Assembly: GCF_965228705.1 (NCBI RefSeq)
Contig: NZ_OZ245832.1
Location: 1,565,340 to 1,597,339, forward strand
Source: Croceimicrobium sp.
Lineage (GTDB): Bacteria > Bacteroidota > Bacteroidia > Flavobacteriales > Schleiferiaceae
Direction of reading: 5' to 3'
DNA length: 32,000 nt
Notes under the pieces: model-generated
Databases searched by the model: none
Seen by the model: the letters and a program-made list of their open reading frames with translations, nothing else
What the model was told of the DNA's origin: nothing
Shown here: positions 10,076-29,026 of the stretch, in pieces
Numbering within the stretch: position 1 is the stretch's first letter
Layout of the letters: each line of letters begins with the position of its first letter
Position numbers and translations under genes: made by a program

Positions 10076-10105
10076 TGCTCTCTGGATTGCTAAATTCCTT
10101 TTTCC

Positions 10106-11137
10106 CTATACAAGAAAATCTTCCACTTCCTCTCCAAAAAGCTCTTGTCGAACATAAGCCAGCTTCTTCACCAAACTCTTTACGCCTTCCACGTCCAATC
10201 TATTGGTATTATGGGAGTGATAATCTTCGATTTCTGAAATATTGGCTTCGCCTTCCGAGAAATACAAAGCATAATTCAAATCACGATTATCGGCAGGAAT
10301 TCGGTAAAAGTCACCCATATCCTCCGCTTTGATCATTTCTTCTCGAGTACAAAGCGTTTCATAGAGTTTCTCTCCATGGCGGGTTCCGATAACTTTTATT
10401 TCGTTATCCTGACCCGATAGTTCTTTCATAGCTTGGGCCAGATCACCAATGGTCGAAGCCGGTGCTTTATTTACAAACAGGTCTCCAGAGTTCCCATGCT
10501 CAAATGCAAACAGTACCAAATCAACAGCATCATGCAAGCTCATCAAGAAACGGGTCATATTAGGATCCGTAACCGTTAAAGCTTGATTCGATTTCAATTG
10601 ATTAATAAACAATGGAATTACTGAACCTCTGGAAGCCATTACATTTCCGTAGCGAGTTAAGCAAACGGTCGTATCCTTCAGGTTTCGGCTTTCCGCAATC
10701 GCCACTTTTTCCATCATTGCTTTGGAAATTCCCATCGCATTAATAGGATAGGCTGCTTTATCGGTACTCAAACAAATTACCTTTCGCACGGAGTTCATAC
10801 CCGCAGCGCGAATAACGTTATGCGTTCCTTCCACATTGGTTTTAACCGCTTGCATTGGAAAGAACTCACAAGATGGTACTTGCTTTAAGGCGGCAGCATG
10901 AAAAATATAATCAACTCCCCTTGTGGCAGGCTCTACACTTTCGAAATCGCGGACATCCCCAATATAAAAGCGCAGTTTGTCAGACTTCAGACGATTACGC
11001 ATATCGTCTTGCTTCTTTTCATCACGCGAGAAAATTCGAATTTCCGAAAAGTGATCAGTATTCAAAAATCGTTGAAGAACGGCATTCCCGAAGGAGCCTG
11101 TACCACCAGTAATTAAGAGGGTTTTATCCTTAATCAT
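10106..11137 (-). CDS. fnlA: UDP-N-acetylglucosamine 4,6-dehydratase/5-epimerase (FnlA/Cap5E/WbjB-type)
   Basis: 343-aa ORF with 'LLITGGTGSFGNAVLQRFL', 'FHAAALKQVPSCEFFPMQAVKTNV' and 'STDKAAYPINAMGISKAMMEK'. It overlaps the upstream GT by 8 nt. Confidence 0.85.
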   Translation of the reverse strand: MIKDKTLLITGGTGSFGNAVLQRFLNTDHFSEIRIFSRDEKKQDDMRNRLKSDKLRFYIGDVRDFESVEPATRGVDYIFHAAALKQVPSCEFFPMQAVKTNVEGTHNVIRAAGMNSVRKVICLSTDKAAYPINAMGISKAMMEKVAIAESRNLKDTTVCLTRYGNVMASRGSVIPLFINQLKSNQALTVTDPNMTRFLMSLHDAVDLVLFAFEHGNSGDLFVNKAPASTIGDLAQAMKELSGQDNEIKVIGTRHGEKLYETLCTREEMIKAEDMGDFYRIPADNRDLNYALYFSEGEANISEIEDYHSHNTNRLDVEGVKSLVKKLAYVRQELFGEEVEDFLV

Positions 11138-13698: not shown

Positions 13699-14994
13699 TT
13701 ATTGCTTGATTAGATCATAGGATCTTATAATTAAACTTCCACTCAAGCCCATAAACAATAGACTAAAGGAGGGTATCAACAGGTACTGCCCTACCATTCC
13801 ACCTATAAGTGCTGAAGAAAAAAGCAATACCACCAAGGCAAGAAACAGCTGGCTGATCCGATCATTCTTCCTCATCTGGTACTTGTTGATTATTCTTCCA
13901 TTCAAAAATGTGATTCGAAGGAAAATAAAGGTCACCAGGAGTCCGCTTATCCAGCCACCTGAACGGATCAATTCCAAGGGAAGGTTATGGATACCAAAAC
14001 TCACATCAGAAATTTCGGATCCATCAATATTGTCAAAGCTAATCTCAGGGTACTCCAAAGGTGGACTAAGTTTTGCATCTTCCCTAAGGTATTTTAAACC
14101 TCCAAGCCAAAGGGTGGATCGATCTCCAATTGCTTTAAACTTGGCATAATCCAGGAAGCTATCCAAAGACTCAAAAGGACTGGTTTCTTCCCAATCCCGT
14201 CTCAAGCTTACCCCTGCTGTTTCTACCTGATTAATCGATAAGATAAATAAGGCAACAAATATGATAAGAACTCTTGGTTTGGTTAGGAGACGGGCTCCTA
14301 GTTTAACTCGCTTATTAAACAAGAGCAATAGGGCGAAAGCCAGAATAAATATAATGGTCCCCTTTACGAAGCCCAATACAAATCCAACCATTAAAAAACC
14401 TACCAAGATTAATAGGTCTAAAAAAGTTAATCGCCCATTGTAGTTCCTTAAAAACATTATACCCGACAAGAGCAAGAAAGGGATAAAAAAGAATAAATAC
14501 CTGACTGTAGCCTCCTCTCCTAATCCTAGCTGAATCACAACGAAGATGGCGATGGCGATAAAGAGTTTCTTGAAAAAATCGGTATCCAGATTGCCTCGTA
14601 AAAGTTGCCCCCAAAAGAAGGGAAAGACAGAAAGTGGAAAAGCCAGAGAAGACAATATTTCCACAAAATTATTGCCTATACGAAGTTGCTCCATCACATT
14701 ATAGCCATGCAAAAGAATCAGCAATCCCGAGAAAATTAGCATTATCCGATTGAACTTGAGCTTCCAGAGACTGCTAAAATGGATCAATGTAATCACCATC
14801 GTCCCCATTAGGATAAAGAAGGAAATGGTGGACCCCAGCATGAAATGAAACAATAGGGGAATTATATAATCCACCCTTCTAAGAAAAAGCAGATAAAGCA
14901 CATAAGGAGCCATGGCTACCTTAAATACATCTCCCAAAGTTAAATACAGGGGAATGCAAGCAACACCAATTATCAGATGTATATACCACTTCAT
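13699..14994 (-). CDS. wzy: O-antigen/repeat-unit polymerase (Wzy-like, O-antigen ligase family membrane protein)
   Basis: 431-aa, highly hydrophobic protein with about 10 or more predicted TM segments. One large hydrophilic loop is followed by 'GIHNLPLELIRSGGWISG', which resembles the Wzy_C motif. It lies next to wzx. Confidence 0.65.
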   Translation of the reverse strand: MKWYIHLIIGVACIPLYLTLGDVFKVAMAPYVLYLLFLRRVDYIIPLLFHFMLGSTISFFILMGTMVITLIHFSSLWKLKFNRIMLIFSGLLILLHGYNVMEQLRIGNNFVEILSSLAFPLSVFPFFWGQLLRGNLDTDFFKKLFIAIAIFVVIQLGLGEEATVRYLFFFIPFLLLSGIMFLRNYNGRLTFLDLLILVGFLMVGFVLGFVKGTIIFILAFALLLLFNKRVKLGARLLTKPRVLIIFVALFILSINQVETAGVSLRRDWEETSPFESLDSFLDYAKFKAIGDRSTLWLGGLKYLREDAKLSPPLEYPEISFDNIDGSEISDVSFGIHNLPLELIRSGGWISGLLVTFIFLRITFLNGRIINKYQMRKNDRISQLFLALVVLLFSSALIGGMVGQYLLIPSFSLLFMGLSGSLIIRSYDLIKQ

Positions 14995-14997: not shown

Positions 14998-16467
14998 CTA
15001 GCTATTGCTTTTATTTCTACCTAAGTTCTTTCTTATCAACTGCATAAGCCATTGCGCTTCCTCTTTATTGATCCAATACCAGAAGAATGTTAAGGCCCCA
15101 AATATGATCAGGGGTAAACCCACCAGCTTCATCCCATTGCTAAAGGTATCAATATCGCCTACAAACCAGAAGAGGGCTCCATAAATGAGGATATACAAAA
15201 TATAAGATGTCCAACCTGACTTCATCAGGGTAAGTAGATTCTTATCGATTAATTTAAGAGAGGCATTCAATTGTGGAATCCCACTAATAATCATTGATAT
15301 AAAAATGCCATAAGCGACTCCCACTGCTCCAAAATTAGCGCCGATGAATACCGCCAAGAGGTATATCGGGAAAACGACCAATGAAATCTTCAATAATTTC
15401 TGCGTAGCTCCTTTTGAATTAAAGAGAATGCCTACCAGCTTAACGGCCGGTAAAATGGCTGCATACAAGGTAAGTACTCGTAAAATTGGAGTTACCGCTG
15501 TCCATTTATCTCCTAGTAAGACATCTATTAAAAGGGGGGCATTAATGAAAATATATACCCCGGAAAAGACCGAAACTAGCAATACGATCTTAAACACGAT
15601 TTTAAAGGATCGATACAGTAATTCGTTATTGTCCTGCCGCTTCGAAAATGAACTAAATAAAGTTTGAGCCAGCATCCCATTAATCTGAGTTCCGGGAATA
15701 ACCACCAACTGAAAGCCTCTGTTATATAAGCCCAAGGAAACCTTACCTATTATTTTCCCAATAATTAGACTATCTAAATTCCTGGATAAGTAGCCCACTA
15801 AATTGGAGCCCAATAAAGGCAGCGAAAAATTCAGAAATGACTTTACGTCCTTAAACTGATAATGCAATTTGGGTAACCAACCCGATAACAACCACAGCAT
15901 GGCTGCAAAAAAGAAGGAAGTGAGGATAACCCGGGCAACCAAACTCCAGTATCCAAAACCGTAATAAGCCAGAGCTAAACTTATTCCTCCAGAAAGTAAA
16001 AGGGCTGCAATCCTTCCTTTAAAGATCAGCTTCATATTGAGCTCCTTTCGAAGCAATGCCAACTGCACCGGTACGGTACTGCTGAGAATGAAGTTCAAGG
16101 ATATAATCTGGGTGATGGCAATAAGGCGTGTATCCTCATAAAAGTTTGCCAAAAATCCTGCAGACAGAAAGAAAATAAAACCCAGAAAAACACCAATCAT
16201 GATGTTCAACCAAAACAAGGATGATTTCTGGTTCTCACTAGGATCTTTGGCTTGAATTAAGGCAGAGCCGAAGCCACTGTCAATAAAAAGGTCCAGAAAG
16301 CCCGCCATTACAGTAGCCAGGGCCACTAATCCGAAATCTTCCGGACTAAGTAGCCTGGCGAAGAAAATTCCAAAGGCTAGATTTAAAATCTGGATGCTCA
16401 GATTTTCGGAGCCATTCCAAATTGCCGCAAAGAAAGACTGCTTAAACAGTGATGATTCCCGACTCAT
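14998..16467 (-). CDS. wzx: polysaccharide flippase (Wzx, MOP superfamily)
   Basis: 489-aa multi-TM protein with a typical Polysacc_synt N-terminus: 'SIQILNLAFGIFFARLLSPEDFGLVALATVMAGFLDLFIDSGFGSALIQ'. Confidence 0.8.
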   Translation of the reverse strand: MSRESSLFKQSFFAAIWNGSENLSIQILNLAFGIFFARLLSPEDFGLVALATVMAGFLDLFIDSGFGSALIQAKDPSENQKSSLFWLNIMIGVFLGFIFFLSAGFLANFYEDTRLIAITQIISLNFILSSTVPVQLALLRKELNMKLIFKGRIAALLLSGGISLALAYYGFGYWSLVARVILTSFFFAAMLWLLSGWLPKLHYQFKDVKSFLNFSLPLLGSNLVGYLSRNLDSLIIGKIIGKVSLGLYNRGFQLVVIPGTQINGMLAQTLFSSFSKRQDNNELLYRSFKIVFKIVLLVSVFSGVYIFINAPLLIDVLLGDKWTAVTPILRVLTLYAAILPAVKLVGILFNSKGATQKLLKISLVVFPIYLLAVFIGANFGAVGVAYGIFISMIISGIPQLNASLKLIDKNLLTLMKSGWTSYILYILIYGALFWFVGDIDTFSNGMKLVGLPLIIFGALTFFWYWINKEEAQWLMQLIRKNLGRNKSNS

Positions 16468-16510: not shown

Positions 16511-17665
16511 TCACAAATGCTGTGATAAGTTTGTTTTCAATTCTTTAACCACCTGATCCAGACTAATTTCCTTTAAAATCTTAGTTCGATTATCCTTCAT
16601 TTCAGATTCTGAAAGTGGTGCAAATGCTGAGGCATTGCTAGCGACTAAGTCCTCCTCAATAGAGAAAACCTTAATTCCTATTCGTTTTAAAAACCAGTAA
16701 AGGCTGTTCTTTTTACTTAAATACACTTTCGCTCCCAGGTAAATAAGGTTTAAGACGTTTCCTACGGCCTGTTGACGATAATGATACATAAGCGCGATGC
16801 CACAAGATTGCAGTAAACTTTGATAGTCCTTTAAGGCCATGAAATCCAATAGAGGATCAAATTGATCCCCTAAGACAGTCTTGCCTTCCTGTGCAATAAG
16901 CTTAGCATACTGAAGGTCGCCATAATTTAATGGGCATATCACCTGCCCGATTTCGTCCAGGTTTTGCTTCTTTAAATGATGAAAGGCGTCCAGGTGATTA
17001 TTTGAATACGAAGCTGAATTACCTAATAGTATATTCTTGCCATCAACGAATGGAGCATCCCTCTCAATGATAAAATCGGCTGGATAATACGTAAAGGCGA
17101 TCCTTTTAGCTTCCTTCTTAATTAATTCATATTTACGATACAAATCAACTTCCTCCTGATACAGGATTGAAACATAGTCTGCCTGTTTCAAAATTTTCAT
17201 CGAAGCCGTTTGATCCTTATTCCTTCCTAAAAAATCATTTACCGCTTCCTTTAAAAAAGGCCAAAGCAGAAATTTGAAAAAGGTTTTAGGCGCAAAAGTG
17301 CTTTTCTTCACCTTATACAGTCCATATACCTCGATACCATATACAGACCAAACAAAAATCTTTTGGCTAATCTCCGAATAGGTTTCGAAGACAGCGCGAT
17401 GCATAGGACCCAAACCATGGAAAACCAAAACCTTAGACTCACGAATCAAGTCTTCAATTTGCTCCTTTCTGTCCGCCTTAAAACAATCCTTTTGAGATAG
17501 AGTAGAAAGGCCATCCTCAAAGGATATATTCTTTAAAGAACTCTTATCCTCTGCTCCTAAAATGAGAAAGTAATTCTGATCTGGAAAGGCAATTTCATAT
17601 GACTTCCGAGCAGCATTGATAAACTTTTCGTCGGTTCCTAAATGTAAGATCTTCATCCTACTCAC
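16511..17665 (-). CDS. GT56-family glycosyltransferase (WecF-like TDP-4-acylamino-6-deoxyhexose transferase)
   Basis: 384-aa ORF. Blocks are collinear with my recollection of E. coli WecF: 'VFHGL...', 'IFVWSVYGIEVYG', 'ILLGNSASYSNNHLDAFHHLKK', 'VICPLNYGD', 'KDYQSLLQSCGIALMYHYRQQAVGNVLNLIYLGAKVYL'. It lies directly downstream of the WecE-like aminotransferase. Confidence 0.7.
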   Translation of the reverse strand: MSRMKILHLGTDEKFINAARKSYEIAFPDQNYFLILGAEDKSSLKNISFEDGLSTLSQKDCFKADRKEQIEDLIRESKVLVFHGLGPMHRAVFETYSEISQKIFVWSVYGIEVYGLYKVKKSTFAPKTFFKFLLWPFLKEAVNDFLGRNKDQTASMKILKQADYVSILYQEEVDLYRKYELIKKEAKRIAFTYYPADFIIERDAPFVDGKNILLGNSASYSNNHLDAFHHLKKQNLDEIGQVICPLNYGDLQYAKLIAQEGKTVLGDQFDPLLDFMALKDYQSLLQSCGIALMYHYRQQAVGNVLNLIYLGAKVYLSKKNSLYWFLKRIGIKVFSIEEDLVASNASAFAPLSESEMKDNRTKILKEISLDQVVKELKTNLSQHL

Positions 17666-17740
17666 AAGGCCAATTAAAAATGGGTTCCAGGGATTACCTT
17701 TAAACGAGAGCTAAAGGGATCCATAATAAGCGTGAAGTAA

Positions 17741-18877
17741 TTAAAGAATTGTGTCTGAGTTCAATACACTCTCCAGGGATTCAGCCAGGTAGCTAAGCTC
17801 ATCTTCTTCCATAATATAAAAAGGAAGGCGTACAAGTTTTTCACCAGCCACATCGGTGTTATGCATTGTTCCGTTACTTCTGCCGGCCTTTGAGCCCATG
17901 GGGGAAGTATGTAATGGAACATAGCCTATATAAGCTGACACTTCTTTTTCTCTGAGGGCTTCAAGGAATTTTTCTCTGGAAAGGTTCGCAGGTAATTCAA
18001 TCCAAAAAGCGTGGTAATTGGTTTCCACGTCCTCAGGAACTTGAACGTAGCGAATATTCAGTTGATTCTTCTCCAGGATACTGGTGTAGGTATCGAACAA
18101 TACTTTGCGTTTCTCTTGCAGGTACTCTAAATGCGACAACTGATCAAAAAGCAAAGATGCCAGAAGGTCGGAAATAAGAAAAGAGCTTCCCAGGTCTACC
18201 CAAGAATATTTGTTTTTAACGCCCGCCAGTACTAAGCTGCGATCGGTTCCTTTTTCCCATAAAAATTGGGCTCTTCGATCGTATTGCGAATCATTAATGC
18301 ACAGGGCACCACCCTCGCCACAAGAATAACTCTTGGTGGCATGAAAACTGAAGGTTGCCAAATGACCGATAGACCCGGCATACCTTCCTTTATACTTGGA
18401 GTTTACCGCTTGAGCTGCATCTTCGATTACAACCAGATTCTTCTCTTTGGCAAATTCCATGATAGGATCCATATCGCAAACTATACCGGCATAATGAACC
18501 ACAACAATTGCTTTGGTTCTGTCGGTTACAGCTTCCCGGATACTTTCCAGGCTAATATTCTTATTTGCCTCATTTACGTCAACATAAACCGGAACAAAAC
18601 CATGAGTAACAAATGCCAATGCTGTACTACTAAAAGTGTAGGATGGAAGAATTACCTCATCCCCTTTTTCGCCATCTAAAAGCAGAGCACACATTTCCAG
18701 TGCATCTGTACAGCTAGTGGTTAACAAACACTTGCCTATACCAAAAGTATCCTCAATTAGTTTTTGAGTTTTTTTAGTGAAGGGACCATCTCCCCCGTGG
18801 TATCCGGAATCAATAGACTCTCCTATTACTTTCTTTTCATTACCAGTTAATGGTGCTTTAACAAAAGGAATTCTCAT
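17741..18877 (-). CDS. dTDP-4-keto-6-deoxyhexose aminotransferase, WecE-type (DegT/DnrJ/EryC1 family, PLP-dependent)
   Basis: 378-aa ORF with long collinear similarity to WecE: 'IPF...GDGPFTKK', 'LLTTSCTDALEMCALLL', 'GDEVILPSYTFSSTALAFV', 'HYAGIVCDMDPIMEFAKEKNLVVIEDAAQAV', and the PLP-lysine block 'FSFHATKSYSCGEGGA'. Confidence 0.85.
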   Translation of the reverse strand: MRIPFVKAPLTGNEKKVIGESIDSGYHGGDGPFTKKTQKLIEDTFGIGKCLLTTSCTDALEMCALLLDGEKGDEVILPSYTFSSTALAFVTHGFVPVYVDVNEANKNISLESIREAVTDRTKAIVVVHYAGIVCDMDPIMEFAKEKNLVVIEDAAQAVNSKYKGRYAGSIGHLATFSFHATKSYSCGEGGALCINDSQYDRRAQFLWEKGTDRSLVLAGVKNKYSWVDLGSSFLISDLLASLLFDQLSHLEYLQEKRKVLFDTYTSILEKNQLNIRYVQVPEDVETNYHAFWIELPANLSREKFLEALREKEVSAYIGYVPLHTSPMGSKAGRSNGTMHNTDVAGEKLVRLPFYIMEEDELSYLAESLESVLNSDTIL

Positions 18878-18925
18878 GCTTTTAGTTCTTTAGAAATATA
18901 AATTACACACTGATAAATTCGATAC

Positions 18926-19561
18926 TTAGTTTTCGTCTAAGTCCTCTACAAGCAGTTTAAACTTCTTCCCTTTATACTCGAACCAACAAGGGTAGCGATC
19001 ATTATCCGCTACTCTTAACTTATTGAACTCGGCCTCCAGGGATGATTGAATATCAATTCTGTTATCCTCACGAGTAAATTTTCGGTAGAAGGTTTCTTCA
19101 CCTTCCTGTTTATGACCCTGAACTGGGAAATTCTGGATATACTTTAATACCAAACGCTTGGTTACTTCAAACTGCTTGGCTTTGATTTGAGCATTTAATT
19201 CGGTGCCATCCAAGGGAAAATATTCCTGATAATAAATATCTCCGGAGTCTACTTTGTCCGCAGCTTCAATCAGGCTCACAGGAATTTCTGTGTTTCCTTC
19301 CAATACTTGCCAGGCTACCGGAGACCAACCTTTTCCTTTGGGCAAAGGACTAGGATGTGCCACCACACAACTTTTATAGCGATCTAATACTTCCCTCTTC
19401 AGGATTTTCTCACAGCTTAAGGCGCATAACACATCTCCTCCTTCTGCATCAGAAGAATTAAAAACATGACGCACCTCATGGTCTTTCAAACCTTCCAGGA
19501 GCTCTGGAATGTACTCTACAATCCAGCTTTCTTTATTATCTGTTAAGACGTCTATCTTCAT
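18926..19561 (-). CDS. formyltransferase-fold protein (putative sugar N-formyltransferase; canonical catalytic Asn not evident)
   Basis: 211-aa ORF. 'CVVAHPSPLPKGKG' aligns to the PurN/Fmt 'LNIHPSLLPxxxG' motif, keeping the His but with Val in the Asn position. 'ADKVDSGDIY' keeps the catalytic Asp. The C-terminal part 'FTREDNRIDIQSSLEAEFNKLRVADNDRYPCWFEYKGKKFKL' is like the end of the formyltransferase core. Confidence 0.65.
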   Translation of the reverse strand: MKIDVLTDNKESWIVEYIPELLEGLKDHEVRHVFNSSDAEGGDVLCALSCEKILKREVLDRYKSCVVAHPSPLPKGKGWSPVAWQVLEGNTEIPVSLIEAADKVDSGDIYYQEYFPLDGTELNAQIKAKQFEVTKRLVLKYIQNFPVQGHKQEGEETFYRKFTREDNRIDIQSSLEAEFNKLRVADNDRYPCWFEYKGKKFKLLVEDLDEN

Positions 19562-19623
19562 AATGCTTTTGATGCTAGAAACCCATGTGAACCTGTCTGA
19601 GAATTGAAGCTAATTCTCTGGAC

Positions 19624-20595
19624 TTAAATGGATTTTTGTTTAAAAGACTCAATCAATTTCGCTTGAAGCAGATTTTGCTCATACTCCTCATTTCGCAAAT
19701 CTGAATCCTTATCCTTCAACATTTTATGAAAGTGCAAGGCAATATTGGTGAAGGCATCATCTTCTGGCAGATCTACCGTTTTAGAACCCTCATTTGACTC
19801 GATAGTCATTTGTGGCACAAAACCTTTACGAGCTGTAAACAATCGATTGGTGAAGAGTTTGCCTTTGGAGCCCCAAACTTCAATTCCACATTGGTAGAAA
19901 TTATCAAAACCGAAGGAAACCTGAGCCGTAGCGGCGCCATCTTTGGTTTTCAGCATCCCATTTCCGTAGATATCTACCTGACGGTCCTCATCCATCGCTA
20001 ATTGCGCAGCCACAACTTCAACATCCTTTCCGAGGAATAAAGCGGCGGTTTTTAAAGTATATGCACCTGCATCGAGCAAGGCTCCACCCCCTAAACTCTT
20101 TTGATATCGGATATTATCAGCATCGGGAAAGGGTGGAAAGCCAAAGGAAGCTCTAAATGAGCGAACTTCACCAATAATCCCATCCTTAAGAGACTCTTGA
20201 ATGCTTTTCAACTGCTTATGGAAGCGAAACTGAAAGCTTTCCAATACAACTAATTGCTTTTCCTTTGCTAAAGAAATGAGCTCCTTTACTTCGTCCTCTG
20301 TGCTTGCCAGGGATTTCTCAACCCAAACATGTAAGCCTTTATTTAATGCCTTACGAATCCATTCATAATGCATTCCGATAGGTAATGGAATATATACAGC
20401 ATCCAAGGTATCGATATCCAATAATTGATCATAACCCTCTATAACCGGAATACCATTAATCTCCGACTCTCCATCGGCTTTAGATCTGGTTGCAATAGCC
20501 ACAATTTCGAACTGATCCGAAAGCTCAGCCAAAGTGGGGATAATGGAACGCAGCGCAATATTTGCTTTGCCTAAAACACCAATCTTTATTCTCAT
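19624..20595 (-). CDS. Gfo/Idh/MocA-family NAD(P)-dependent oxidoreductase, probable NDP-hexose ketoreductase (KijD10-like C3-ketoreductase)
   Basis: 323-aa ORF with 'IGVLGKANIALRS' Rossmann motif, 'VWVEKSLA' (EKP-like motif) and 'NIRYQKSLGGGALLDAGAYTLKTAALFLG'. Its start overlaps the stop of the 2,3-dehydratase (ATGA at 20592-20595). Confidence 0.65.
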   Translation of the reverse strand: MRIKIGVLGKANIALRSIIPTLAELSDQFEIVAIATRSKADGESEINGIPVIEGYDQLLDIDTLDAVYIPLPIGMHYEWIRKALNKGLHVWVEKSLASTEDEVKELISLAKEKQLVVLESFQFRFHKQLKSIQESLKDGIIGEVRSFRASFGFPPFPDADNIRYQKSLGGGALLDAGAYTLKTAALFLGKDVEVVAAQLAMDEDRQVDIYGNGMLKTKDGAATAQVSFGFDNFYQCGIEVWGSKGKLFTNRLFTARKGFVPQMTIESNEGSKTVDLPEDDAFTNIALHFHKMLKDKDSDLRNEEYEQNLLQAKLIESFKQKSI

Positions 20596-22004
20596 ACGAA
20601 TGATAATGCTGCAATCAGGCTACGTGCCTGAATGTTTAAATAATTATTATAGCGTAAGAAGTTATGTAGTTGACCCAAGGTCATCCAGATATAGTTTTCG
20701 GGTAATTCTACCGGAATTTCATCACCAGCGATAATCGCCATATTTCGATTTTGTTCCCTGTAAAAACGGCCTCCTTCTTCCGACTGCAGGCAATCAAAAA
20801 TTACTTGATCCTGAGCCGCATTTAAAACATAATCCAAGAAGGGCAAAGAGCCTTGTTTGGATTCTCGGTAATTACCGGTTAAACATTGTACGGTTGGAGC
20901 TAATTCGATGATATCGTGATTACCACATTCCAATTTAGCTTGAACTGCAAAATGTAATACCCCATTAATCTCTTTACAAACAAAGGCACAGAGGCCTTCC
21001 TGAGCAGGCTCAACCATAGGCTGACTCCAACTAACAACCTCCCGGTTACCAATTTGTACATCCACAGGAATTACTCTAAAGTATTTGCCATCAGGACGAT
21101 AAATCATTTCCTGATCAAAAACCCATTGATCCGTTTTTGCCAAATCAACCTTAGATACTTTTAGACTATACATACTCTTAAAGTGAGTAATAAAGGATAT
21201 TACCTCATCTATGGGATGTAAGCTATTTTCATCGGTTAAGGCTGAACGCAAGATCTTACTGGAAACCTCCCCGTCGCTATTATCTAAAAAGGTGTAAAAA
21301 TCTATAGACTCCTGGTTCACCGTACCAAATGGAATACCACTTATTACAGTTCGGGTATCCATATTCACCAAATTATCATAGCGCATCAAGGTCTTTAATT
21401 GCGCCAGGGTAACCCATTGGAAGTTATCGTAAACTTCAATTTCTTCCTCTACCTTGATAATAATATTTCGATTGCGTTTTCGCAAAAAGCGTGCACCCTG
21501 TTCACTTTGTAATTGATCTAATAATACCTGATTTGGACTGGCATTTCTGAAATAGTCCAGGTATAAAGGTTGACGTCCTTTATGAACCTGAGTATAATTA
21601 CTGCGTGTAGCTTGTAAGGTGGGGGAAAGCTGTACGTAATTCACATTGCCCGGCTCAATTTTGGCTTGTACCAGGAAGTGTAAAATCCCATTGAACTCTT
21701 TGGTAATGAACCCTAAATAGCCCACTTCCGGCTGATTGATGATCGGTTGTTCCCAATAAGGAACTTTTCCCCAATCCGTCTCCACAGCAATACCATCAAT
21801 AGAGAAAAACTTACCTGAATTATGGGCAATTCTGCCACTATCCTTATCGTAAGACCACTGCTGTAATTTATCGAAGCGGCTTTTGGTAATTTGAACATTG
21901 ACCGCTTCATTTTGCTCGGCCACCCACTCAATCATTTGAGGAATGGTTTTAAAGCTCCCTTCTAGTGAGAATGCACTCTTTAAAAACAGCTGTGTCTTTT
22001 TCAT
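20592..22004 (-). CDS. NDP-hexose (dTDP-4-keto-6-deoxyglucose) 2,3-dehydratase, EvaA/TylX3/OleV family
   Basis: 470-aa ORF with a clear internal duplication of two ~200-aa lobes: 'GKFFSIDGI..GYLGFITKEFNGILHFLVQAKIEPGN..LQSEQGARFLRKRNRN' versus 'GKYFRVIPV..GLCAFVCKEINGVLHFAVQAKLECGN..LQSEEGGRFYREQNRN'. Size and architecture are characteristic of this family. Confidence 0.8.
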   Translation of the reverse strand: MKKTQLFLKSAFSLEGSFKTIPQMIEWVAEQNEAVNVQITKSRFDKLQQWSYDKDSGRIAHNSGKFFSIDGIAVETDWGKVPYWEQPIINQPEVGYLGFITKEFNGILHFLVQAKIEPGNVNYVQLSPTLQATRSNYTQVHKGRQPLYLDYFRNASPNQVLLDQLQSEQGARFLRKRNRNIIIKVEEEIEVYDNFQWVTLAQLKTLMRYDNLVNMDTRTVISGIPFGTVNQESIDFYTFLDNSDGEVSSKILRSALTDENSLHPIDEVISFITHFKSMYSLKVSKVDLAKTDQWVFDQEMIYRPDGKYFRVIPVDVQIGNREVVSWSQPMVEPAQEGLCAFVCKEINGVLHFAVQAKLECGNHDIIELAPTVQCLTGNYRESKQGSLPFLDYVLNAAQDQVIFDCLQSEEGGRFYREQNRNMAIIAGDEIPVELPENYIWMTLGQLHNFLRYNNYLNIQARSLIAALSFV

Positions 22005-22045
22005 AGGATCTAAATGCTTTTTGTTTTCCTGCCGGAAATCTCAGT

Positions 22046-22921
22046 CTACTTTGTTAAAAGCTTATTCAAGTATTCACCATAAGAACTCTTCCCCTGGTGG
22101 GTCACATGCATTTGAAGAGTTGGCTTATCGATATTACCCATTCGATATGCGATCTCCTCAAGGCAAGCAATCTTCAAGCTGGTTCGTTTCTCAACCGCCT
22201 TAACGAATTCTGTAGCCTCACTCATACTTTCATGGGTACCAGTATCCAGCCAGGCATAACCACGACTCAACTTTTGAAGTTTCAAATTTTGAGCTTGCAA
22301 ATAGTTTTGATTTACGGTAGTAATCTCCAATTCCCCTCTGGAAGAAGGTTTTACCTGCTTTGCAATTTCCACCACAGAATTTGGGTAATAATACAGGCCT
22401 ACAACCGCATAATTTGATTTGGGCTCAAGTGGTTTTTCCTCTATGCTCAATACATTGCCGGCTTCATCAAAATCCGCAACGCCATAGCGCTCAGGATCTT
22501 CCACATAGTAGCCAAATACCACCGCTTTTTGCTCTTCCTTTACTGTACTTACAGCATCAGCTAAAAGCTTTTGCAAACCGGCTCCATAGAAGATATTGTC
22601 TCCCAGCACTAAACACACATCATCATCGCCGATGAAATCTTCGCCAATAATAAATGCTTGCGCAAGGCCATCCGGAGAAGGTTGCTCGGCATAACTAAGC
22701 TTAATTCCAAAGCCACTTCCATCCCCTAATAGCCTTTCAAAGCCAGGTAAATCATGCGGCGTTGAAATAATTAGAATTTCGGTAATACCCGATAGCATCA
22801 ATACCGACAATGGGTAATAGATCATGGGTTTATCGTAAACAGGTAAAAGCTGCTTGCTAACGGCCTTGGTTAAAGGATACAATCGAGTACCGGATCCACC
22901 GGCTAAAATGATTCCTTTCAT
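22046..22921 (-). CDS. rfbA: glucose-1-phosphate thymidylyltransferase
   Basis: 291-aa ORF with '[43 protein letters not shown]' and 'LGDNIFYG', the canonical RmlA sequence. Confidence 0.92.
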
Positions 22922-22926: not shown

Positions 22927-23901
22927 TTAATCTTTTTTAGTGCTATACCAATCGAAAACTTCCTTCAAGCCTTTTTCAAAGCGAACTTTGGGCGAATACC
23001 CTAGAAGTTCCTCGGCTTTATTAATATTGGCTTTGCTATGTCTAACGTCCCCAGGTCTTTCCGGTCCGTGGGTAACTTTAACTTTCTTCCCTGCGATTCC
23101 TTCCAGCATGCTCACCATTTCATTCAAGGAAATTTGGTCACCGCAAGCTCCATTATATACCTGGTTCAGTGCCTTTGGATTTTCGGTAAACAGACCCAAA
23201 TCATTCAATAGTACCGCATTATCCACAAAGGTGAAATCACGGCTGGTCTCACCATCACCATTGATGGTAATCTCACCATCCTCTAAAAAGGCCTTACAGA
23301 AAATTGGAATAACCGCTGCATAGGGATTATCCGGATTTTGTTTGGGACCAAATATGTTAAAGTAGCGAAACCCAATCCAGTCCAGACCATAGGTTTTGCC
23401 AAAGACATCGGCAAACTGCTCTACAGAGTATTTAGTTACGGCATAGGGACTCAAAGGATTACCAATACGATCTTCTACTTTAGGCAGACCGGGATGATCG
23501 CCATAAGTACTGGAACTACAGGCCAGTATAACCCTATCCACACCTTGTTTTACAGCGGCATGCAAAACATTTACCGTTCCGAGAATATTCACCTCAGTGC
23601 TTCGCATTGGGTTTTCGATGCTTCTTGGCACTGATCCCAAAGCAGCCTGATGACTGATTTTATCAATACCCTCGCAAGCCTTTAAGCAAGTCTCGTAATT
23701 GGTGATATCACCATTGATAAACTCAAATTTGCTGTGCCCTTCGAATCCTTTGATGTTTTCGTAGTAGCCATTACTCAAATCATCGAGAATGCGCACTAAT
23801 GCCACACGTTCATCATTGAGAAAGTGCTCTACCAAATTGGAGCCGATAAAACCGGCACCACCGGTAATAAGAAGATTGATTGGTTTATTCGCTTCGCTCA
23901 T
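22927..23901 (-). CDS. NAD-dependent UDP-GlcNAc(A) C4-epimerase, WbpP/TviC-like SDR
   Basis: 324-aa ORF with '[16 protein letters not shown]', '[11 protein letters not shown]', '[15 protein letters not shown]' and 'YAVTK'. It is paired with a TviB/WbpO-like dehydrogenase upstream. Confidence 0.75.
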
Positions 23902-24017
23902 GCTATTGTAATTGAGGCTTCGATTATTATTCTCGGAGCGCCTTAATTAATTTACAATTCGATTTTTCCGAATTTGAATAGATTTGGATAGGAGTTAAGA
24001 AATATCTCAGACTTCTA

Positions 24018-24086
24018 CCTAATAAAAGACCCAGAACGATTTGAGAGAAATGATTGCTCATGACTTCTCAAAATAGGTAGGGTCTT
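24018..24086 (-). terminator. compound stem-loop with U-rich tail between the dehydrogenase and epimerase genes (possible partial terminator or attenuator)
   Basis: The outer stem AAGACCC (24026-24032) pairs with GGGTCTT (24080-24086). The inner stem TTTGAGA (24040-24046) pairs with TCTCAAA (24066-24072). On the minus strand the structure is followed by TTTTATT. It starts 59 nt after the stop at 24145. Confidence 0.3.
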
Positions 24087-24144
24087 CATTTTAATTCAAC
24101 ATCACCCAATGGTGAGTTTATTTATAAGAATAGTTCTTAGTCGA

Positions 24145-25449
24145 TTACAGACGGCCATCCACCAATTCCTTTGGTAGAATGCTTTTCACATCGTACAGAA
24201 CGCCTCCGTCTCGGGCAAGAGATTTTAAGTCCATCTCCAAGAACTCATTATGTGCTACGGCTAATACCACTGCATCATAATTTGATTCCAGATTATCCAC
24301 TGCGCGCAATCCGTATTCATGCCACACTTCTTCTTTATCCGCCCATGGATCATAAACATCCACACTCAGGTCATAGGAACGAAGCTCTTTGTAAATATCA
24401 ATCGCTCGGGTATTTCGGATATCAGGACAATTCTCTTTGAAGGTAATACCCAACATCAAGATTTTGGAACCTAATACCTTGAGATCCTTCTTCACCATTA
24501 GCTTCACTACCTGGGTTGCCACATACTGCCCCATGGAATCGTTCAAACGGCGACCGGCAAGGATAATTTCTGGATGATAACCAACTTCCTGAGCTTTTTG
24601 AGCCAAATAATAAGGATCCACTCCGATACAGTGCCCCCCAACCAAACCTGGCTTGAAGGGTAAGAAATTCCACTTGGTACCGGCCGCTTCCAATACTTCC
24701 TGGGTATCAATACCCATCAAATTGAAAATTTTGGCAAGCTCATTCACAAAAGCGATATTAATATCACGTTGAGAATTCTCAATCACCTTTGCTGCTTCAG
24801 CCACTTTTAAGGACGAAGCTTTGAAAGTCCCAGCCGTAATTACAGAGCGATATAACTCATCAACATACTCAGCCACCTCGGGAGTTGATCCTGAAGTAAC
24901 TTTTAAAATTTTGGTAACCGTGTGTAATTTATCACCCGGATTAATACGTTCGGGAGAATAGCCTACAAAGAAATCTTCATTGAACTTTAAACCTGAGGTT
25001 TTCTCCAAAATTGGAACACAATGTTCTTCAGTTACCCCTGGATATACGGTAGATTCATAAATAACCACATCGCCTTTGCCTAAAACACGACCAACAGTTT
25101 CGCTAGACTTGGTAAGGGGGGTTAAAACAGGACGATTATGTTCATCTGTAGGAGTAGGAACCGTTACGATGTATATATTACATTCGCTGATGTCGGTAAC
25201 TGCATCACTGCAATACAATCCCTTACCATTGATTTTAAGTTCCATGGGATTGGGCAATACAACAGATTGCAACTCTTCATCACTTACCTCCAGGGTACGA
25301 TCCGTCCCTTTGGAAAGTTCTTCTACCCTTGCCTTGTTGATATCAAAACCAACTGTAGGGAATTTCTTGGCAAATTCCACTGCCAAAGGAAGGCCAACGT
25401 AGCCTAATCCTATTAAAGCAATTTTTGAATCCTTCAGATCCTTCATCAT
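24145..25449 (-). CDS. UDP-N-acetyl-hexosamine 6-dehydrogenase (nucleotide-sugar dehydrogenase, TviB/WbpO-like)
   Basis: 434-aa ORF with '[21 protein letters not shown]' NAD motif and catalytic-Cys block '[17 protein letters not shown]'. The size (~425-435 aa) is typical of TviB/WbpO rather than Ugd. Confidence 0.85.
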
Positions 25450-25457: not shown

Positions 25458-25985
25458 TTAACTCTCCCAGATCAACAAATAACTCTGCCGATCCAGTAAT
25501 TTTTCAATTTCTACTCGTGACTTAAAATGTACATAACGGATTTTCCGCTCGATTTCCTTTTCTGCTTTCTCAAGTAAAATCAAGAGATAATCCATATTTA
25601 ACTCCGATCCTAAAACAAAAAGGTCGATGATACCACTATCCCGACCTTCCGCATAATCCCCCACTAAATATACCGCTTCAACCTTACCTAAACGCTCAGT
25701 TATACTATCTACAATTTTATCTAAGCCAACATACTTCATTACTAAACCATGCAAGTTCTCAAATAAAGGATGCTTGGGATTAGCACGGTAGACCTTTTTA
25801 TTGCCCTCAGATTCTGATGAAAGCATACCTGCTTCCTCAAATTTATTGAGCTCCAACCGGATGGCATTCGTACTTTCACCAAACTCGTGTTCAAGGCTAC
25901 GTAAATAACCTTTGGACTGAGCATTCAGAAAGAATTTCAGCAATAATTTAATGCGGGTACGAGAAGAAATGAGCGTTTCGAGCAT
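25458..25985 (-). CDS. winged-helix (ArsR-like) transcriptional regulator with C-terminal nucleotidyltransferase-like domain
   Basis: 175-aa ORF with an N-terminal wHTH pattern ('[43 protein letters not shown]'). The C-terminal '[22 protein letters not shown]' resembles the minimal NTase G-x-x-A-x-G...D-x-D motif. It is the first gene of the locus, 8 nt upstream of the dehydrogenase gene. Confidence 0.6.
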
Positions 25986-26369: not shown

Positions 26370-28602
26370 TTACTTAATCAGTTTTTGAGTAAACACGGGG
26401 GCATTCTTAGACTCCACTTTAAGGATATACACACCAGCACTTAAGGCTGTGGTCAGGACTTCTTGCTCCTGAACTTCATCAAAATGACCTTGCCACACTA
26501 ATTGACCGGCCTGATTAAATAGATACATATCTACCTGTGGAAGAGTTTGACCGCAAACTACTTTGAAACCATTCTCGGTATTGTAAGCGTAGTTGTTGTT
26601 TACAACCTGCTCCTTTACACTTACTCCGGTTTGGTTGATGTGAATTACAAATCGATCCGCTAGGTTTCCGGGAACATGCATAAACTGATAACTGCTGGTT
26701 TTTAAATCAACACGAGTACCGGTTAATTTATCCTCCAACTCCACTAACCAAGAAGCTGGTAAGCGTAAATCATTGATGCTGATAGTATAGGACTGCTCTA
26801 ATCCTGATTTAAAGGATAGATCCACTGATTTGCTGCTAAAGGACTCATTCAACTTATTGGCAAAGAATTGATCTCCATTGGCAGAAGTGGTATACAAGCT
26901 GGGGTATAAAGTGGTATTCATACGTTTTACAGCATCCAAACCATTATCCCATCCATCAGTGTACTGGCTGCTGAAAGCCAAAAGAGTTTCGTCGCTAATA
27001 CCATCGGCAGAAGCCACCTTCAATTTCAGTACTTGAGCAGCGCTATTGGTTTTGCTTTGCGATGGACTTTCAGTTAAAATGCGATCAGCATTATCCAGAG
27101 CCAGGTTGATACTTCCACTTCCCGTGTTCTGCACAAAGAATGCTTGCATAGGCGCGATATACTGAGACCCTGAGTTTAATGGACTATCAGTATTGGCATC
27201 GTATCCAATCCACTGACTACCATTATAGATATAATAAGTAGAAGTTAAGTTGGTGCTATTTGCATCATGATAGGTATTCCAATCAATGGCCGACGGATAA
27301 GGATTAGGAACTAAGTTCCACCCGCTATTACTATTATCCAGGGCTATATTGATAGCACCGTCATTTAATGCCGTTCCGCTGGCGGTTAAGGTAATGGGTA
27401 AGGTTCCAAAATAAGTTCCATCTCCCAGGTAAAGCCCAAAACCATTATCAGTAGTTGAGAAAGAGGTATTTGGTACAGCAGTCCAAGTTCCTTCTCCGTT
27501 ATTTGCAGTACTGGGATCGTAATAATAGATATTCACTTGATTGCTGGTACCTCCGGCACTGGTAATAATACTACCATCACTTACCGACCAACCGGAAACG
27601 GTTCCGCTGGAAATTGGAGATGCGGCGTAAAACCATCGCCCGCTTCCTGTAAAAGTGCGTTCTACATTAATGGTATTTCCACCAGAAACAGTTCCTATAA
27701 TTTGACCATAATTTCCACTATTGTCAGAATCTAAGGTAGTAGTTCCACTTACAGTTAAGGTATTACTGTTGGTGTTGAGGGTCGCGGAAGCACTCACCGT
27801 AAGGTCATTATTTACGGTTACATTTTGAGCCATGCCTACCGTAGCAGAGGTATTGCTTACAACCATATAATCAAATGTGACCGGATCGCTGGTTCCACCC
27901 ACACTTTGAGCGGCAGTACCATCAAAAAATACCGCACGACTATTATTAGTTAAGGTGCCTCCATTCAAATTGAAATCACCTCCAACATTTAAATCACCTC
28001 CTGAAGTACTGGATAAGCTCAAGGTTCCTGAACTACCAATAGTAACATCACCGGCTACATCGATCACATCCGAAGATGTTCCATAATCGATGGTACCATC
28101 ATTTACAATAAAGTCATTAGCAATGGTCCAGGCACCAGAAGCCGCTCTGGTAATTGATCGACCGGAACTGTTCATGGTGAAGTCATAAACTGAAATCGAA
28201 CCAAAACCTGTAGCATCCGCACTACCTACAAAGCAATAAGACTCTTGTGAGAAGGGTGTTGTAGAGGATCCATCAGTGGTATTGCTTACATTATAATAAC
28301 GAACATAGTCGGCACTTACACCAGTTGGATTGTTTGAAGGAATACGGGCAAAGGTTCCACCGCCACCGCCAGAGTAAGACATAAACCCAACGAAATTGAA
28401 GGCGGAAGGACGACCCGACCCGGTGATTGCGGACCATGGAATTGCAAATTCACCTACATCATTAGCATCGCTAAAGCTTTTAGTTAATGTACCAGTTGTA
28501 GAGGCTCCCCAGCTTCCAGCGCCATCATCTGTCTTGTAGTCATCATAGGTATCCTTGACAAAGGCAAAAAAGTCGGCCCGAAAGGGAAAGTTGGGAGTCA
28601 CA
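26370..28602 (-). pseudogene. T9SS-secreted beta-helix/adhesin-like protein, C-terminal fragment (IS-disrupted)
   Basis: The C-terminus 'VDMYLFNQAGQLVWQGHFDEVQEQEVLTTALSAGVYILKVESKNAPVFTQKLIK' is a type-A T9SS sorting domain. The central region has G/S/T/N-rich beta-helix-like repeats ('GDVTIGSSGTLSLSS..GGDLNVGGDFNLNGGTLTNN..TVNNDLTVSASATLNTNSNTLTVSGTTTL'). The first 43 residues of the track ORF (28603..28730) are read-through into the IS. Confidence 0.8.
28600..28602. repeat. target-site duplication, left copy (ACA)
   Basis: The same ACA flanks the other IS end at 29830-29832. Removing one copy plus the IS restores the reading frame. Confidence 0.6.
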
Positions 28603-28627
28603 GTGTAAGCTTCCCTTAAAACCGAAC
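28603..28627 (+). repeat. IS left inverted repeat (G)TGTAAGCTTCCC-TTAAAA-CCGAAC
   Basis: It matches the reverse complement of 29807-29829 (TGTAAGCTTCCC-CTGAT-CCGAAC): 12/12 terminal nt plus a conserved CCGAAC block, with a TG...CA terminus. Confidence 0.75.
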
Positions 28628-28670
28628 TGTTTAAAAGTAGAGGAATAGGATTAATTTTAAACAGTCGATT

Positions 28671-28937
28671 ATGAGAAAGAGTAAGTTTTCGCCAGAGAAG
28701 ATTGCCAGGGTCTTGAAAGAGTTTGATCAAGGTAGAAGTGCACAGGAATTGAGCCGAGAGTACGGGGTTAGTACCGCAACGTTTTACAAATGGCGAGAGC
28801 GTTATGCTGGCATGAGTGGAAAGGAGTTAAAGCGTATAAAGGATCTTGAAGAGGAAAACAGGAAGCTTAAGCAGATGTACGCGAACCTGGCCCTAGATCA
28901 TCAACTAGCTAAAGAGATTATTGAAAAAAAGCTTTAA
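28671..28937 (+). CDS. IS3-family transposase OrfA (HTH DNA-binding protein)
   Basis: 88 aa with an HTH ('[24 protein letters not shown]') followed by a leucine-zipper-like '[27 protein letters not shown]'. Confidence 0.85.
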
Positions 28938-28998: not shown

Positions 28999-29026
28999 AT
29001 GCCGTGTATTAAACCTCAGTAAAAGC

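Follow-up and report, generated by a model that had tools for sequence, protein, structure and literature searches.

A gene cassette in the marine-type genome of Croceimicrobium sp. (Flavobacteriales) very probably encodes the synthesis of a dTDP-sugar with a 4-amino-2,4,6-trideoxy core, and we give roughly even chances to the complete reading, in which the cassette contributes a dTDP-sugar branch to a surface-glycan locus of the Wzx/Wzy type according to the pathway proposed below. A preliminary description of this DNA had inferred, as main product, a dTDP-4-amino-2,4,6-trideoxyhexose that is acylated (formylated) at the amine and inserted into a repeat unit. Our data support an N-acylated sugar of this kind well, and it fits a four-gene module that is conserved in at least seven loci.

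Organization of the gene locus

The window is a stretch of 32,000 nt from contig NZ_OZ245832.1, and all coordinates given here are window positions. On its minus strand, rmlA is followed by the genes for a dehydratase, a Gfo/Idh/MocA reductase, a formyltransferase-fold (FT-like) protein, an aminotransferase and a GT56 transferase, and then by wzx and a putative wzy, which are located just beyond the range 16511-22921. The intergenic distances from rmlA to the putative wzy are, in this order, 41, -4, 62, 48, 75, 43 and 3 nt, and this confirmed the run of eight same-strand genes with overlaps or gaps of at most 75 nt that had been described initially. The five family assignments made at that time were upheld when the proteins were searched with Pfam profiles.

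The product of rmlA (22046-22921), a glucose-1-phosphate thymidylyltransferase, scored 460 bits with TIGR01207 (cutoff 360.65) and 255 bits with PF00483, and its predicted role is the supply of dTDP-glucose. As had been cautioned before, the window was found to lack rmlB; among its SDRs, even the strongest candidates reached 119-151 bits and stayed far below the 365-bit cutoff of TIGR01181. This missing gene counts against our main reading. Upstream of rmlA, and transcribed in the same direction, are the genes for a TviC-like epimerase and a TviB-like UDP-GlcNAc 6-dehydrogenase (22927-25449, minus strand; NF011729 588 bits at a cutoff of 592, NF011728 288 bits), which are predicted to supply UDP-GalNAcA for the same glycan.

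Wzx (14998-16467) was recognized as a flippase of the MOP family by PF13440 (274 bits) and PF01943 (127 bits). The gene of the putative Wzy polymerase (13699-14994) starts 3 nt after wzx and its product, in which some 10 hydrophobic segments are interrupted between residues 262 and 346, did not match any Pfam profile even at E ≤ 1. We call this gene wzy solely from its position beside wzx and the polytopic membrane character of its product. Thus, the earlier wzx/wzy call stands for wzx, and its second half found no profile support.

Predicted 2,3-dehydratase and C3-ketoreductase

The 470-aa dehydratase (20592-22004) consists of two tandem Hexose_dehydrat (Nudix-like) domains, so that PF03559 matched twice (508 bits, cutoff 25). 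It aligned with EvaA (4j7g) at E 3e-105 and 42% identity across 418 aligned positions, and both halves were covered. E117 and E168 occupy the positions of E139 and E190, the glutamates that have been proposed as catalytic in EvaA, and are invariant among 15 homologues. The enzyme is predicted to convert dTDP-4-keto-6-deoxyglucose to a 3,4-diketo-2,6-dideoxy sugar.

The start of the reductase gene (19624-20595) overlaps the dehydratase stop by 4 nt, which read ATGA. The protein matched PF01408 and PF22725, and its best PDB match was KijD10 (3rbv; E 1e-65, 225 bits, 41% identity); the next one, another Gfo/Idh/MocA protein, scored 92 bits (E 2.6e-25). K94 in the motif VEK aligned with AEK of KijD10, the column in which the variant 3rcb reads Glu, and Y179 (LDAGAY) aligned with LDIGVY. 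We take these residues to be the counterparts of the active-site Lys and Tyr of KijD10, numbered K102 and Y186. Judged from these alignments, the dehydratase is specifically EvaA-like and the reductase specifically KijD10-like, with conserved catalytic residues, and the initial assignment of both enzymes was borne out.

This pair had also been regarded as "antibiotic-style" and unusual for Bacteroidota. At the level of genomes, this view did not hold. Bacteroidota and environmental contigs contain many close relatives (54-78% identity), and our neighbourhood survey (n = 47) indicates that related gene sets are common in environmental Bacteroidota. The ketoreductase adjoined the dehydratase in all 47 loci with enough flanking sequence, and either a C4-aminotransferase or an SDR reductase was found beside the pair in 43 of them. 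The examples listed in a 2022 review all belong to antibiotic pathways.

Aminotransferase

The PLP-dependent aminotransferase (17741-18877) matched PF01041 with 260 bits. It passed the WecE equivalog NF008687 (450.9 bits, cutoff 375) and stayed below the older subfamily model TIGR02379 (398.8 vs 434.85). Comparison with WecE structures yielded E-values of 2.5e-92 (6blg) and 8e-90 (4piw), whereas the C3-type enzyme QdtB gave only 4e-36. K182 (SFHATKSY) aligned with the lysine in SFHETKNY of 6blg and was assigned by us as the putative PLP-binding residue. From the gene context, the natural substrate is predicted to be a 2-deoxy sugar.

These data bear on an alternative order of steps that had been put forward, in which the 3,4-diketo intermediate is aminated at C3 and then reduced at C4 to yield a 3-formamido-2,3,6-trideoxyhexose. 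Such a route exists in actinomycete pathways (EvaA/EvaB, for instance). Here, it conflicts with an aminotransferase that passes the C4 equivalog and with a reductase that is specifically of the KijD10 (C3) type, and we therefore regard it as highly improbable. Moreover, there is no SDR in the module, and to our knowledge the C4 reductases of such pathways are SDRs.

Recurrence of the four-gene module

The combination of an FT-like protein, a dehydratase, a Gfo/Idh/MocA reductase and a DegT aminotransferase was found in shuffled order in at least seven loci (the window, L008, L010, L144, L168/P0133, P0134 and P0135), although the L144 reductase was not observed because this 3.1-kb contig ends within the aminotransferase gene. 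The aminotransferase scored as WecE type in the window, L008, L010, L144 and L168, whereas for P0134 and P0135 the assignment is to the DegT family; that of L168 is 67% identical to the window enzyme. The L008 locus belongs to Tenacibaculum sp. MAR_2009_124 and carries the module together with rmlB-rmlA.

The module also helps to judge whether two separate sugars might be made. WecE, the FT-like protein and the GT56 transferase would then form and transfer dTDP-4-formamido-4,6-dideoxygalactose with its C2 hydroxyl kept, and dehydratase and ketoreductase would lead to a 2,6-dideoxyhexose via an unlinked 4-ketoreductase. In the enterobacterial common antigen (ECA), WecE and a GT56 enzyme do work together on a C2-hydroxylated sugar. 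In addition, loci with dehydratase, ketoreductase and SDR in which any aminotransferase is missing are common (15/47), and two SDRs of the window (3324-4190 and 16-960) are without assigned role. However, in the SDR-type loci the reductase adjoins the pair, but here the 288-aa SDR lies 15 kb away and is just 25% identical to the SDR-locus type; the other one is Fcl-like. The aminotransferase gene is interleaved between dehydratase and ketoreductase genes in L008, L010, L118 and L142, and members of the FT-like clade are accompanied by the dehydratase and not merely by WecE. A split into two sugars thus appears rather improbable to us, and a single 4-amino-2,4,6-trideoxyhexose is the preferred reading.

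Formyltransferase-like protein

The FT-like protein (18926-19561; 211 aa) had been taken as an ordinary formyltransferase, but our data place it elsewhere. PF00551 matched with 47.7 bits (cutoff 26.1) over profile positions 73-174 only, and no NCBIfam model was passed (TIGR00460, the best one, 70.6 vs 201.5 bits; PRK07579 26.5 vs 238). The C-terminal dimerisation domain PF18216 was not matched in the Pfam search, and the N-terminal subdomain is shortened. The AF2 model (pLDDT 96.2) displays the full FT fold. In our alignments, Val67 replaces the catalytic Asn, and His69 and Asp105 of the triad are present. Among 92 family sequences, position 67 is occupied by Val (90) or Ile (2), and H69 and D105 are kept in all of them; the SLLP-like motif 'HPSPLPKGKGWSP' is invariant or nearly so. 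By these sequence features, the protein is a member of an uncharacterised Asn-less clade of about 210 aa. Its gene matches the Flavobacteriales MAG UBA7878 at 99%.

Outside the dTDP-module clade, this family usually resides in Pse/Leg clusters. In a neighbour-joining tree of the 92 sequences, all module members fell into one clade of 17, which did not include any Pse-cluster member. In Pse clusters, the family occurs with a deacetylase and often with a second FT-like gene, which in the clusters inspected encodes proteins with the 1ZGH-like motif 'CVIFHMTDVPFGRGGSP'. PseH was not matched among the eight genes of the sole Pse cluster that was annotated gene by gene. The Pse/Leg context implies that the substrate would be an amine, borne either by an NDP-4-amino-4,6-dideoxyhexose or by its descendant.

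Since the clade is Asn-less and usually occurs in pseudaminic acid clusters, N-formylation is something that we infer rather than read from the gene; it is plausible but unproven. Still, we consider it fairly probable that the FT-like protein N-formylates the C4 amine. Alternatively, the core pathway might be retained and the FT-like protein might not be an N-formyltransferase, so that the amine stays free or carries another group, or the protein has a different folate-dependent or a non-catalytic role. The substitution of the catalytic Asn throughout the family is in line with this explanation. The closest solved structure, 1ZGH (profile E 2.5e-23, TM 0.79), is a structural genomics entry annotated as Clostridium thermocellum 'Met-tRNA formyltransferase' and is itself uncharacterised. 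The second-best structural match, the N-domain of HypX, likewise lacks the Asn in the alignment. For HypX, the acceptor of the formyl group is reportedly a thiol and not an amine, and the same has been noted for the FDH N-domain. Furthermore, the deacetylase and the frequent second FT-like gene make it ambiguous which protein formylates in Pse clusters. The nonulosonic acids of Kuenenia bear one free amine (preprint). On the other hand, the same preprint describes an N-formylated nonulosonic acid for Kuenenia, whose cluster has a deacetylase and a formyltransferase. His69, Asp105 and the SLLP-like motif are preserved, the fold is complete and confidently modelled, and within the dTDP module the FT-like gene and the aminotransferase gene are always inherited together. 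Profile annotation detected no other N-acyltransferase gene in the operon, and at the corresponding place in the cassette of Saccharicrinis carchari there is a canonical 4-N-formyltransferase. Taken together, we consider a role other than N-formylation the less probable reading, although the missing Asn, the shortened N-terminal subdomain, the failure to pass any equivalog and the lack of a characterised clade member do weigh against our main reading.

GT56 transferase

The WecF-like GT56 protein (16511-17665) matched PF07429 with 58.8 bits (cutoff 25), but only its C-terminal half was covered (residues 208-341, profile positions 184-319). It stayed below the WecF equivalogs NF002756 (151 vs 457 bits) and NF052570 (59 vs 525 bits), and the related modules of L008, L010 and L168 have no GT56; these observations speak against the main reading. 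A GT56 gene follows the formyltransferase gene in the S. carchari cassette, too. On balance, the protein is probably the transferase for the acylamido-deoxyhexose.

Proposed pathway and implications

In the pathway that we propose, RmlA and an RmlB encoded elsewhere would provide dTDP-4-keto-6-deoxy-D-glucose. The EvaA-type enzyme would strip off the C2 hydroxyl to give the 3,4-diketo-2,6-dideoxy sugar, the KijD10-type enzyme would reduce C3, and amination of C4 by the WecE-type aminotransferase would lead to dTDP-4-amino-2,4,6-trideoxyhexose, with the amine probably axial as in Fuc4N. The FT-like protein would then acylate this amine, most likely with a formyl group from N10-formyl-THF, and the GT56 transferase would move the sugar onto a lipid-linked repeat unit that is flipped by Wzx and polymerised by the putative Wzy. 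Our observations comprise the genes and their order, their families, the conservation of catalytic residues and the joint inheritance of the module; from these we deduce the enzyme activities, the sequence of steps, the formyl donor, the stereochemistry and what the GT56 enzyme acts on.

We found no 2-deoxygenated N-acylated 4-amino surface sugar in the searchable literature. More far-reaching, and in our judgement somewhat short of an even chance, is the proposal that the cassette makes 4-formamido-2,4,6-trideoxyhexose. A 2-deoxy amino sugar would then be demonstrated for the first time in the surface polysaccharide of a Gram-negative bacterium. Acid-labile 2-deoxy sugars of this type would be widespread and overlooked in Bacteroidota glycans, and the formyl group would be introduced by a mechanistically distinct, Asn-independent N-formyltransferase clade that was recruited once from nonulosonic acid pathways. 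Acid hydrolysis during composition analysis destroys 2-deoxy glycosides, and surface sugars of this kind may therefore have evaded chemical detection.

If our reading is correct, 2-deoxygenated 4-amino sugars with various N-acyl groups (predicted as formyl here, and in sister loci as acetyl and aminoacyl, among others) would commonly be built into the cell surfaces of environmental Bacteroidota. EvaA/KijD10 chemistry would no longer be confined to the 'antibiotic sugar' box, soluble Gram-negative enzymes would become available for chemoenzymatic 2-deoxy sugar synthesis, and there would be a new formyltransferase-fold clade with pseudaminic/legionaminic acid tailoring as its main role.

Comparison with known systems

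The FT-like protein shares fold, similar size, the His and Asp of the triad and the presumed acceptor, a dTDP-4-amino-6-deoxyhexose, with WbtJ, VioF and Rv3404c (4nv1, 4yfv, 4pzu). In contrast, identity is only about 20%, Val replaces the catalytic Asn, PF18216 is missing, the N-terminal subdomain is shorter, and the C-terminal subdomain aligns to the FMT profile (TIGR00460) up to about position 244 and to ArnA. In 1ZGH, too, Val takes the place of the Asn (CVVFH), but with 260 aa and 20% identity it represents a paralogous family and not the same one. PseJ (6ci2/6ci4) is said to be the formyltransferase of the 7-formamido-pseudaminic acid pathway and to act on a 4-amino-4,6-dideoxyhexose nucleotide. 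It resembles the FT-like protein in fold, length (about 200 aa) and the Pse-cluster context common to most FT-like relatives. However, it belongs to a different family: the FT-like family profile gave E 2e-8, which is weaker than for VioF, ArnA or FMT, and single-sequence comparison yielded no match at E ≤ 0.01.

At the level of whole gene sets, the S. carchari cassette likewise combines dehydratase, ketoreductase, aminotransferase, N-formyltransferase and GT56, but it is non-orthologous, with a DesI-like aminotransferase and a canonical WbtJ/VioF-type N-formyltransferase. The Fuc4NAc branch of ECA (WecE, WecD, WecF) also pairs a WecE-type C4-aminotransferase with a GT56 enzyme, which acts on a dTDP-4-acylamido-6-deoxyhexose, and the same activity is predicted here. 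The natural substrate of WecE keeps its C2 hydroxyl and the product is dTDP-Fuc4N, whereas the substrate here is predicted to be 2-deoxygenated, and instead of the GNAT acetyltransferase WecD there is an FT-fold protein. With the EvaA/KijD10 pair of actinomycetes (4j7g, 3rbv), the two window enzymes share the families at the identities given above, the catalytic residues, neighbouring and translationally coupled genes and the dTDP context, but their genes are part of a putative Wzx/Wzy surface-glycan locus and not of a secondary-metabolite cluster.

Gene organization and identity of the core enzymes

The ORF map upheld the run of eight same-strand genes, arranged with overlaps or gaps of 75 nt or less, that the preliminary description had reported. 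On the minus strand, rmlA (22046-22921) is followed by genes for a 470-aa dehydratase (20592-22004), a 323-aa reductase (19624-20595; PF01408 and PF22725), a 211-aa formyltransferase-like (FT-like) protein (18926-19561), a 378-aa aminotransferase (17741-18877; PF01041), a 384-aa GT56 transferase (16511-17665; PF07429, C-terminal half), a 489-aa Wzx (14998-16467) and a 431-aa putative Wzy (13699-14994). The spacings from rmlA to putative wzy are 41, -4, 62, 48, 75, 43 and 3 nt, and the 4-nt overlap of the dehydratase and reductase genes reads ATGA. Pfam searches bore out each of the family names that had been proposed, and the 2,3-dehydratase profile PF03559 matched the 470-aa protein twice. 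As to the polymerization genes, wzx is backed by PF13440 and PF01943, but the putative Wzy has no Pfam match even at E<=1 and takes its name from position and polytopic character alone.

As had been described, rmlB is absent from the window. Two further short-chain dehydrogenases (SDRs) are present, of which one is a weak generic epimerase and the other (16-960) is Fcl-like; profile and sequence comparisons ruled out either as RmlB or as a 4-ketoreductase of the Flavobacterium nackdongense type. A sigma-70 promoter scan, the consensus of which differs from Bacteroidota promoters, gave 22 sites when 33.6 were expected. Contigs near-identical to the window occur in several marine samples.

The dehydratase is 42% identical to EvaA (E 3e-105). 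In the literature two glutamates are named as the probable catalytic residues of EvaA; both are kept here as E117 and E168, and they are invariant across homologues. The reductase matches KijD10 at E 1e-65 (41% identity; next Gfo/Idh/MocA structure 2.6e-25) and retains both the lysine and the tyrosine of that enzyme. The aminotransferase passed the NCBI equivalog model for WecE (451 bits vs a cutoff of 375) and matches WecE structures (E 2.5e-92) far better than QdtB, a C3 aminotransferase (4e-36). Judged by these comparisons, the three proteins are specifically of the EvaA, KijD10 and WecE types on which the original proposal of a 4-amino-2,4,6-trideoxyhexose had been built. An alternative order had also been considered, in which amination at C3 precedes reduction at C4. 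Because of the three identities together, this order is unlikely.

The formyltransferase-fold protein

The PF00551 match of the FT-like protein is confined to the second half of the profile (positions 73-174), and the protein passed none of the curated NCBI models. Its best solved relative is 1ZGH, which is itself uncharacterised. The active site of formyltransferases is Asn-x-His, but the FT-like protein reads Val-Ala-His at this place. Across 92 family members the Asn position is occupied by Val (90) or Ile (2), and His69 and Asp105 are present in all of them. An AF2 model (pLDDT 96.2) contains the complete formyltransferase fold. When this model was used for a fold search, 1ZGH, the HypX N-domain, FMT, ArnA and sugar N-formyltransferases were about equally distant; all matches had about 20% identity and TM 0.7-0.8, values at which N-formyltransferase and HypX-/FDH-like chemistry are not separable. 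The fold assigned in the preliminary description stands. PseJ is the characterised formyltransferase of the pseudaminic acid pathway; the family profile matches it at E 2e-8, and identity of the FT-like protein with PseJ was ruled out. The FT-like proteins form an uncharacterised clade of the formyltransferase fold.

A scan of species-representative genomes found FT-like members in 428 stretches from many phyla. Among the best 80 of these 428 stretches (L007-L086), 63 are clusters of the pseudaminic/legionaminic type (including L036 and L081); a PseI-like synthase is present in 65, an LmbE-type deacetylase in 52, a second FT-like gene in 32 (scored with the paralogue of L024) and a 2,3-dehydratase in only 3. 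The one second FT-like gene whose sequence was read, that of L081, carries a 1ZGH-like motif. In L054, L057, L062, L071 and L081 the FT-like protein appears fused to PseG. A Polaribacter cluster (L024:6134-13056) has the order PseB, PseC, PseF, PseG, FT-like, second FT-like, deacetylase, PseI, and PseH was unmatched among these eight genes. For Kuenenia, a preprint describes a nonulosonic acid in which one amine is formylated and the other free, made by a cluster that includes a deacetylase and a formyltransferase; an FT-like gene is present in a related anammox genome (L074). This context supports acylation by the FT-like protein of an amine on a 4-amino-4,6-dideoxyhexose derivative, but falls short of proof that this protein transfers formyl. 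In the pseudaminic/legionaminic clusters, FT-like protein and deacetylase may constitute an uncharacterised system that swaps N-acetyl for N-formyl.

In two short contigs, L045 (Omnitrophota) and L046, the FT-like gene adjoins WecE-like aminotransferase genes and a dehydratase is not visible. These may be versions of a C2-hydroxylated pathway leading to a 4-formamido-4,6-dideoxyhexose.

A four-gene module

The FT-like (FTL), dehydratase (DH), ketoreductase (KR) and aminotransferase genes recur together. The cultured strain Tenacibaculum sp. MAR_2009_124 (L008) has the order rmlB-rmlA-FTL-DH-WecE-KR and L010 has DH-WecE-KR-FTL. A 3.1-kb contig (L144) reads rmlA-FTL-DH-WecE and stops inside the aminotransferase gene, so that the reductase is out of view. 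The contigs of the relatives P0133 (L168), P0134 and P0135 share the order FTL-DH-KR-aminotransferase; the aminotransferases of L168 and of the window share 67% identity, and those of P0134 and P0135 were recorded as DegT family only. The gene order thus shifts between loci, and the content is constant. In a neighbour-joining tree the FT-like proteins of the module form one clade (17 of the 92 sequences) without any member from a Pse cluster, which suggests a single recruitment into a dTDP pathway.

An alternative explanation is that the WecE-type, FT-like and GT56 proteins on the one hand and the dehydratase and ketoreductase on the other serve two separate sugars. A gene content that stays constant while the order is shuffled speaks for action of the four module proteins on one sugar and against the two-sugar explanation. 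The latter is further weakened by the spare SDR of the window, which is far, in position and in sequence, from the 4-ketoreductase type.

Frequency of the dehydratase/ketoreductase pair

The pair had been described as antibiotic-style, but it is not unusual for Bacteroidota: at E<=1e-20 the database holds at least 8000 dehydratase relatives, and the best 120 of these (65-78% identity) come, where named, from Flavobacterium, Saccharicrinis, Sediminibacterium, Cyclobacteriaceae, Bacteroidota MAGs and Rhodohalobacter. We then surveyed 80 metagenomic loci with close dehydratase relatives (54-70% identity), 47 of which had at least 3.5 kb downstream. Here, we found a KijD10-like reductase in 47/47. 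The pair was accompanied by a DesI-like C4 aminotransferase in 23 loci, by an SDR of the F. nackdongense type in 15, by a WecE-type aminotransferase in 3, by a DesI-like aminotransferase plus a canonical formyltransferase in 1 and by both DesI-like and WecE-type aminotransferases in 1; in 4 loci dehydratase and reductase stood alone. The window is a minority version among such loci. In F. nackdongense the SDR next to the pair is presumably a 4-ketoreductase yielding a 2,6-dideoxyhexose. Of the 80 metagenomic loci, 15 had a wzx gene no more than 6 kb away.

In the common loci with dehydratase, ketoreductase and aminotransferase (L087-L166), the gene that follows the aminotransferase varies in the amine-modifying enzyme that it encodes, with PglD-like hexapeptide acetyltransferases, WbqC-like proteins, ATP-grasp ligases, formyltransferases or pyruvyl transferases, which suggests a set of differently N-acylated 4-amino-2,4,6-trideoxyhexoses. 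As a trait of these glycan loci, the predicted 4-acylamido-2,4,6-trideoxyhexoses and 2,6-dideoxyhexoses seem to be common yet uncharacterised.

Remainder of the locus

Several GT4 transferases belong to the same locus. TviB/TviC-like enzymes (22927-25449) are predicted to supply UDP-GalNAcA, and FnlA/WbcJ-like/WecB-like (FnlA/B/C-like) enzymes (7328-11137) would provide an L-FucNAc-type sugar via the 2-acetamido-2,6-dideoxy-L-hexose route. The repeat unit probably contains many unusual sugars, including a uronic acid that may carry an amide; an AsnB-type amidotransferase is encoded at 4283-6196. Between the FnlA-like and WbcJ-like genes lies a 135-aa ORF (9668-10075, minus) with weak cupin-type matches (FdtA/WxcM-like C-terminal, Polysacc_synt_C).

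The locus opens with a 175-aa protein (25458-25985, minus) without significant family match, the gene of which is preceded by a strong terminator-like hairpin (26155-26129). Its N-terminus is similar to that of the protein opening a glycan locus of Balneolaceae (L009:3354-3869), and the 175-aa protein is a possible conserved winged-helix regulator of loci of this kind. Farther out, an insertion of about 1.2 kb (28604-29829) with 12-nt terminal inverted repeats at its ends and an rve-type integrase ORF (29027-29800, plus) splits the gene of an 851-aa secreted protein into flanking ORFs (26370-28730 and 29814-30191, minus). A contig nearly identical to the window has this gene unbroken (L001:3078-5633), and the proteins share 89% identity in the N-terminal 114 aa and 97% in the C-terminal 743 aa.

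Proposed pathway and comparison with known systems

RmlA and an unlinked RmlB would form dTDP-4-keto-6-deoxyglucose, which would undergo 2,3-dehydration, reduction at C3 and then transamination at C4. The amine would be N-acylated, probably N-formylated, and GT56 would move the sugar onto an undecaprenyl-linked repeat unit, to be flipped by Wzx and polymerised by the putative Wzy. All activities, the step order, acyl donor, stereochemistry and GT56 substrate are what we infer here. Of the preliminary description, the gene observation was confirmed and the interpretation holds in part only.

In a 2022 review of nucleotide-sugar dehydratases, the 2,3-dehydratases listed are all from antibiotic pathways. 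In the openly licensed literature, which makes this weak evidence, we found no report of 4-acylamido-2,4,6-trideoxyhexoses, 2,6-dideoxyhexoses or formamido-trideoxy sugars in surface polysaccharides, nor a precedent for the combination of dehydratase, ketoreductase and formyltransferase. An Aeromonas O-antigen paper was ruled out as precedent, its '3-dehydratase' being a GDP-sugar enzyme. Known enzyme families would be combined here into a sugar type unreported from surface glycans, and the class of such gene sets appears widespread.

A comparable cassette is found in Saccharicrinis carchari (L005:10001-18847), where genes for a dehydratase, a ketoreductase and a DesI-like aminotransferase occur with those for a GT56 transferase and for a canonical 4-N-formyltransferase of the WbtJ/VioF type (E 5e-55 to 4nv1). 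This cassette is broken up by Schlafen/AlbA_2-type and DUF559 genes and lies beside ABC-transporter genes, whereas that of the window lies beside wzx/wzy. The two are parallel but non-orthologous, which shows that 2-deoxygenation, a C4 amine, a formyl group and GT56 were assembled at least two times.
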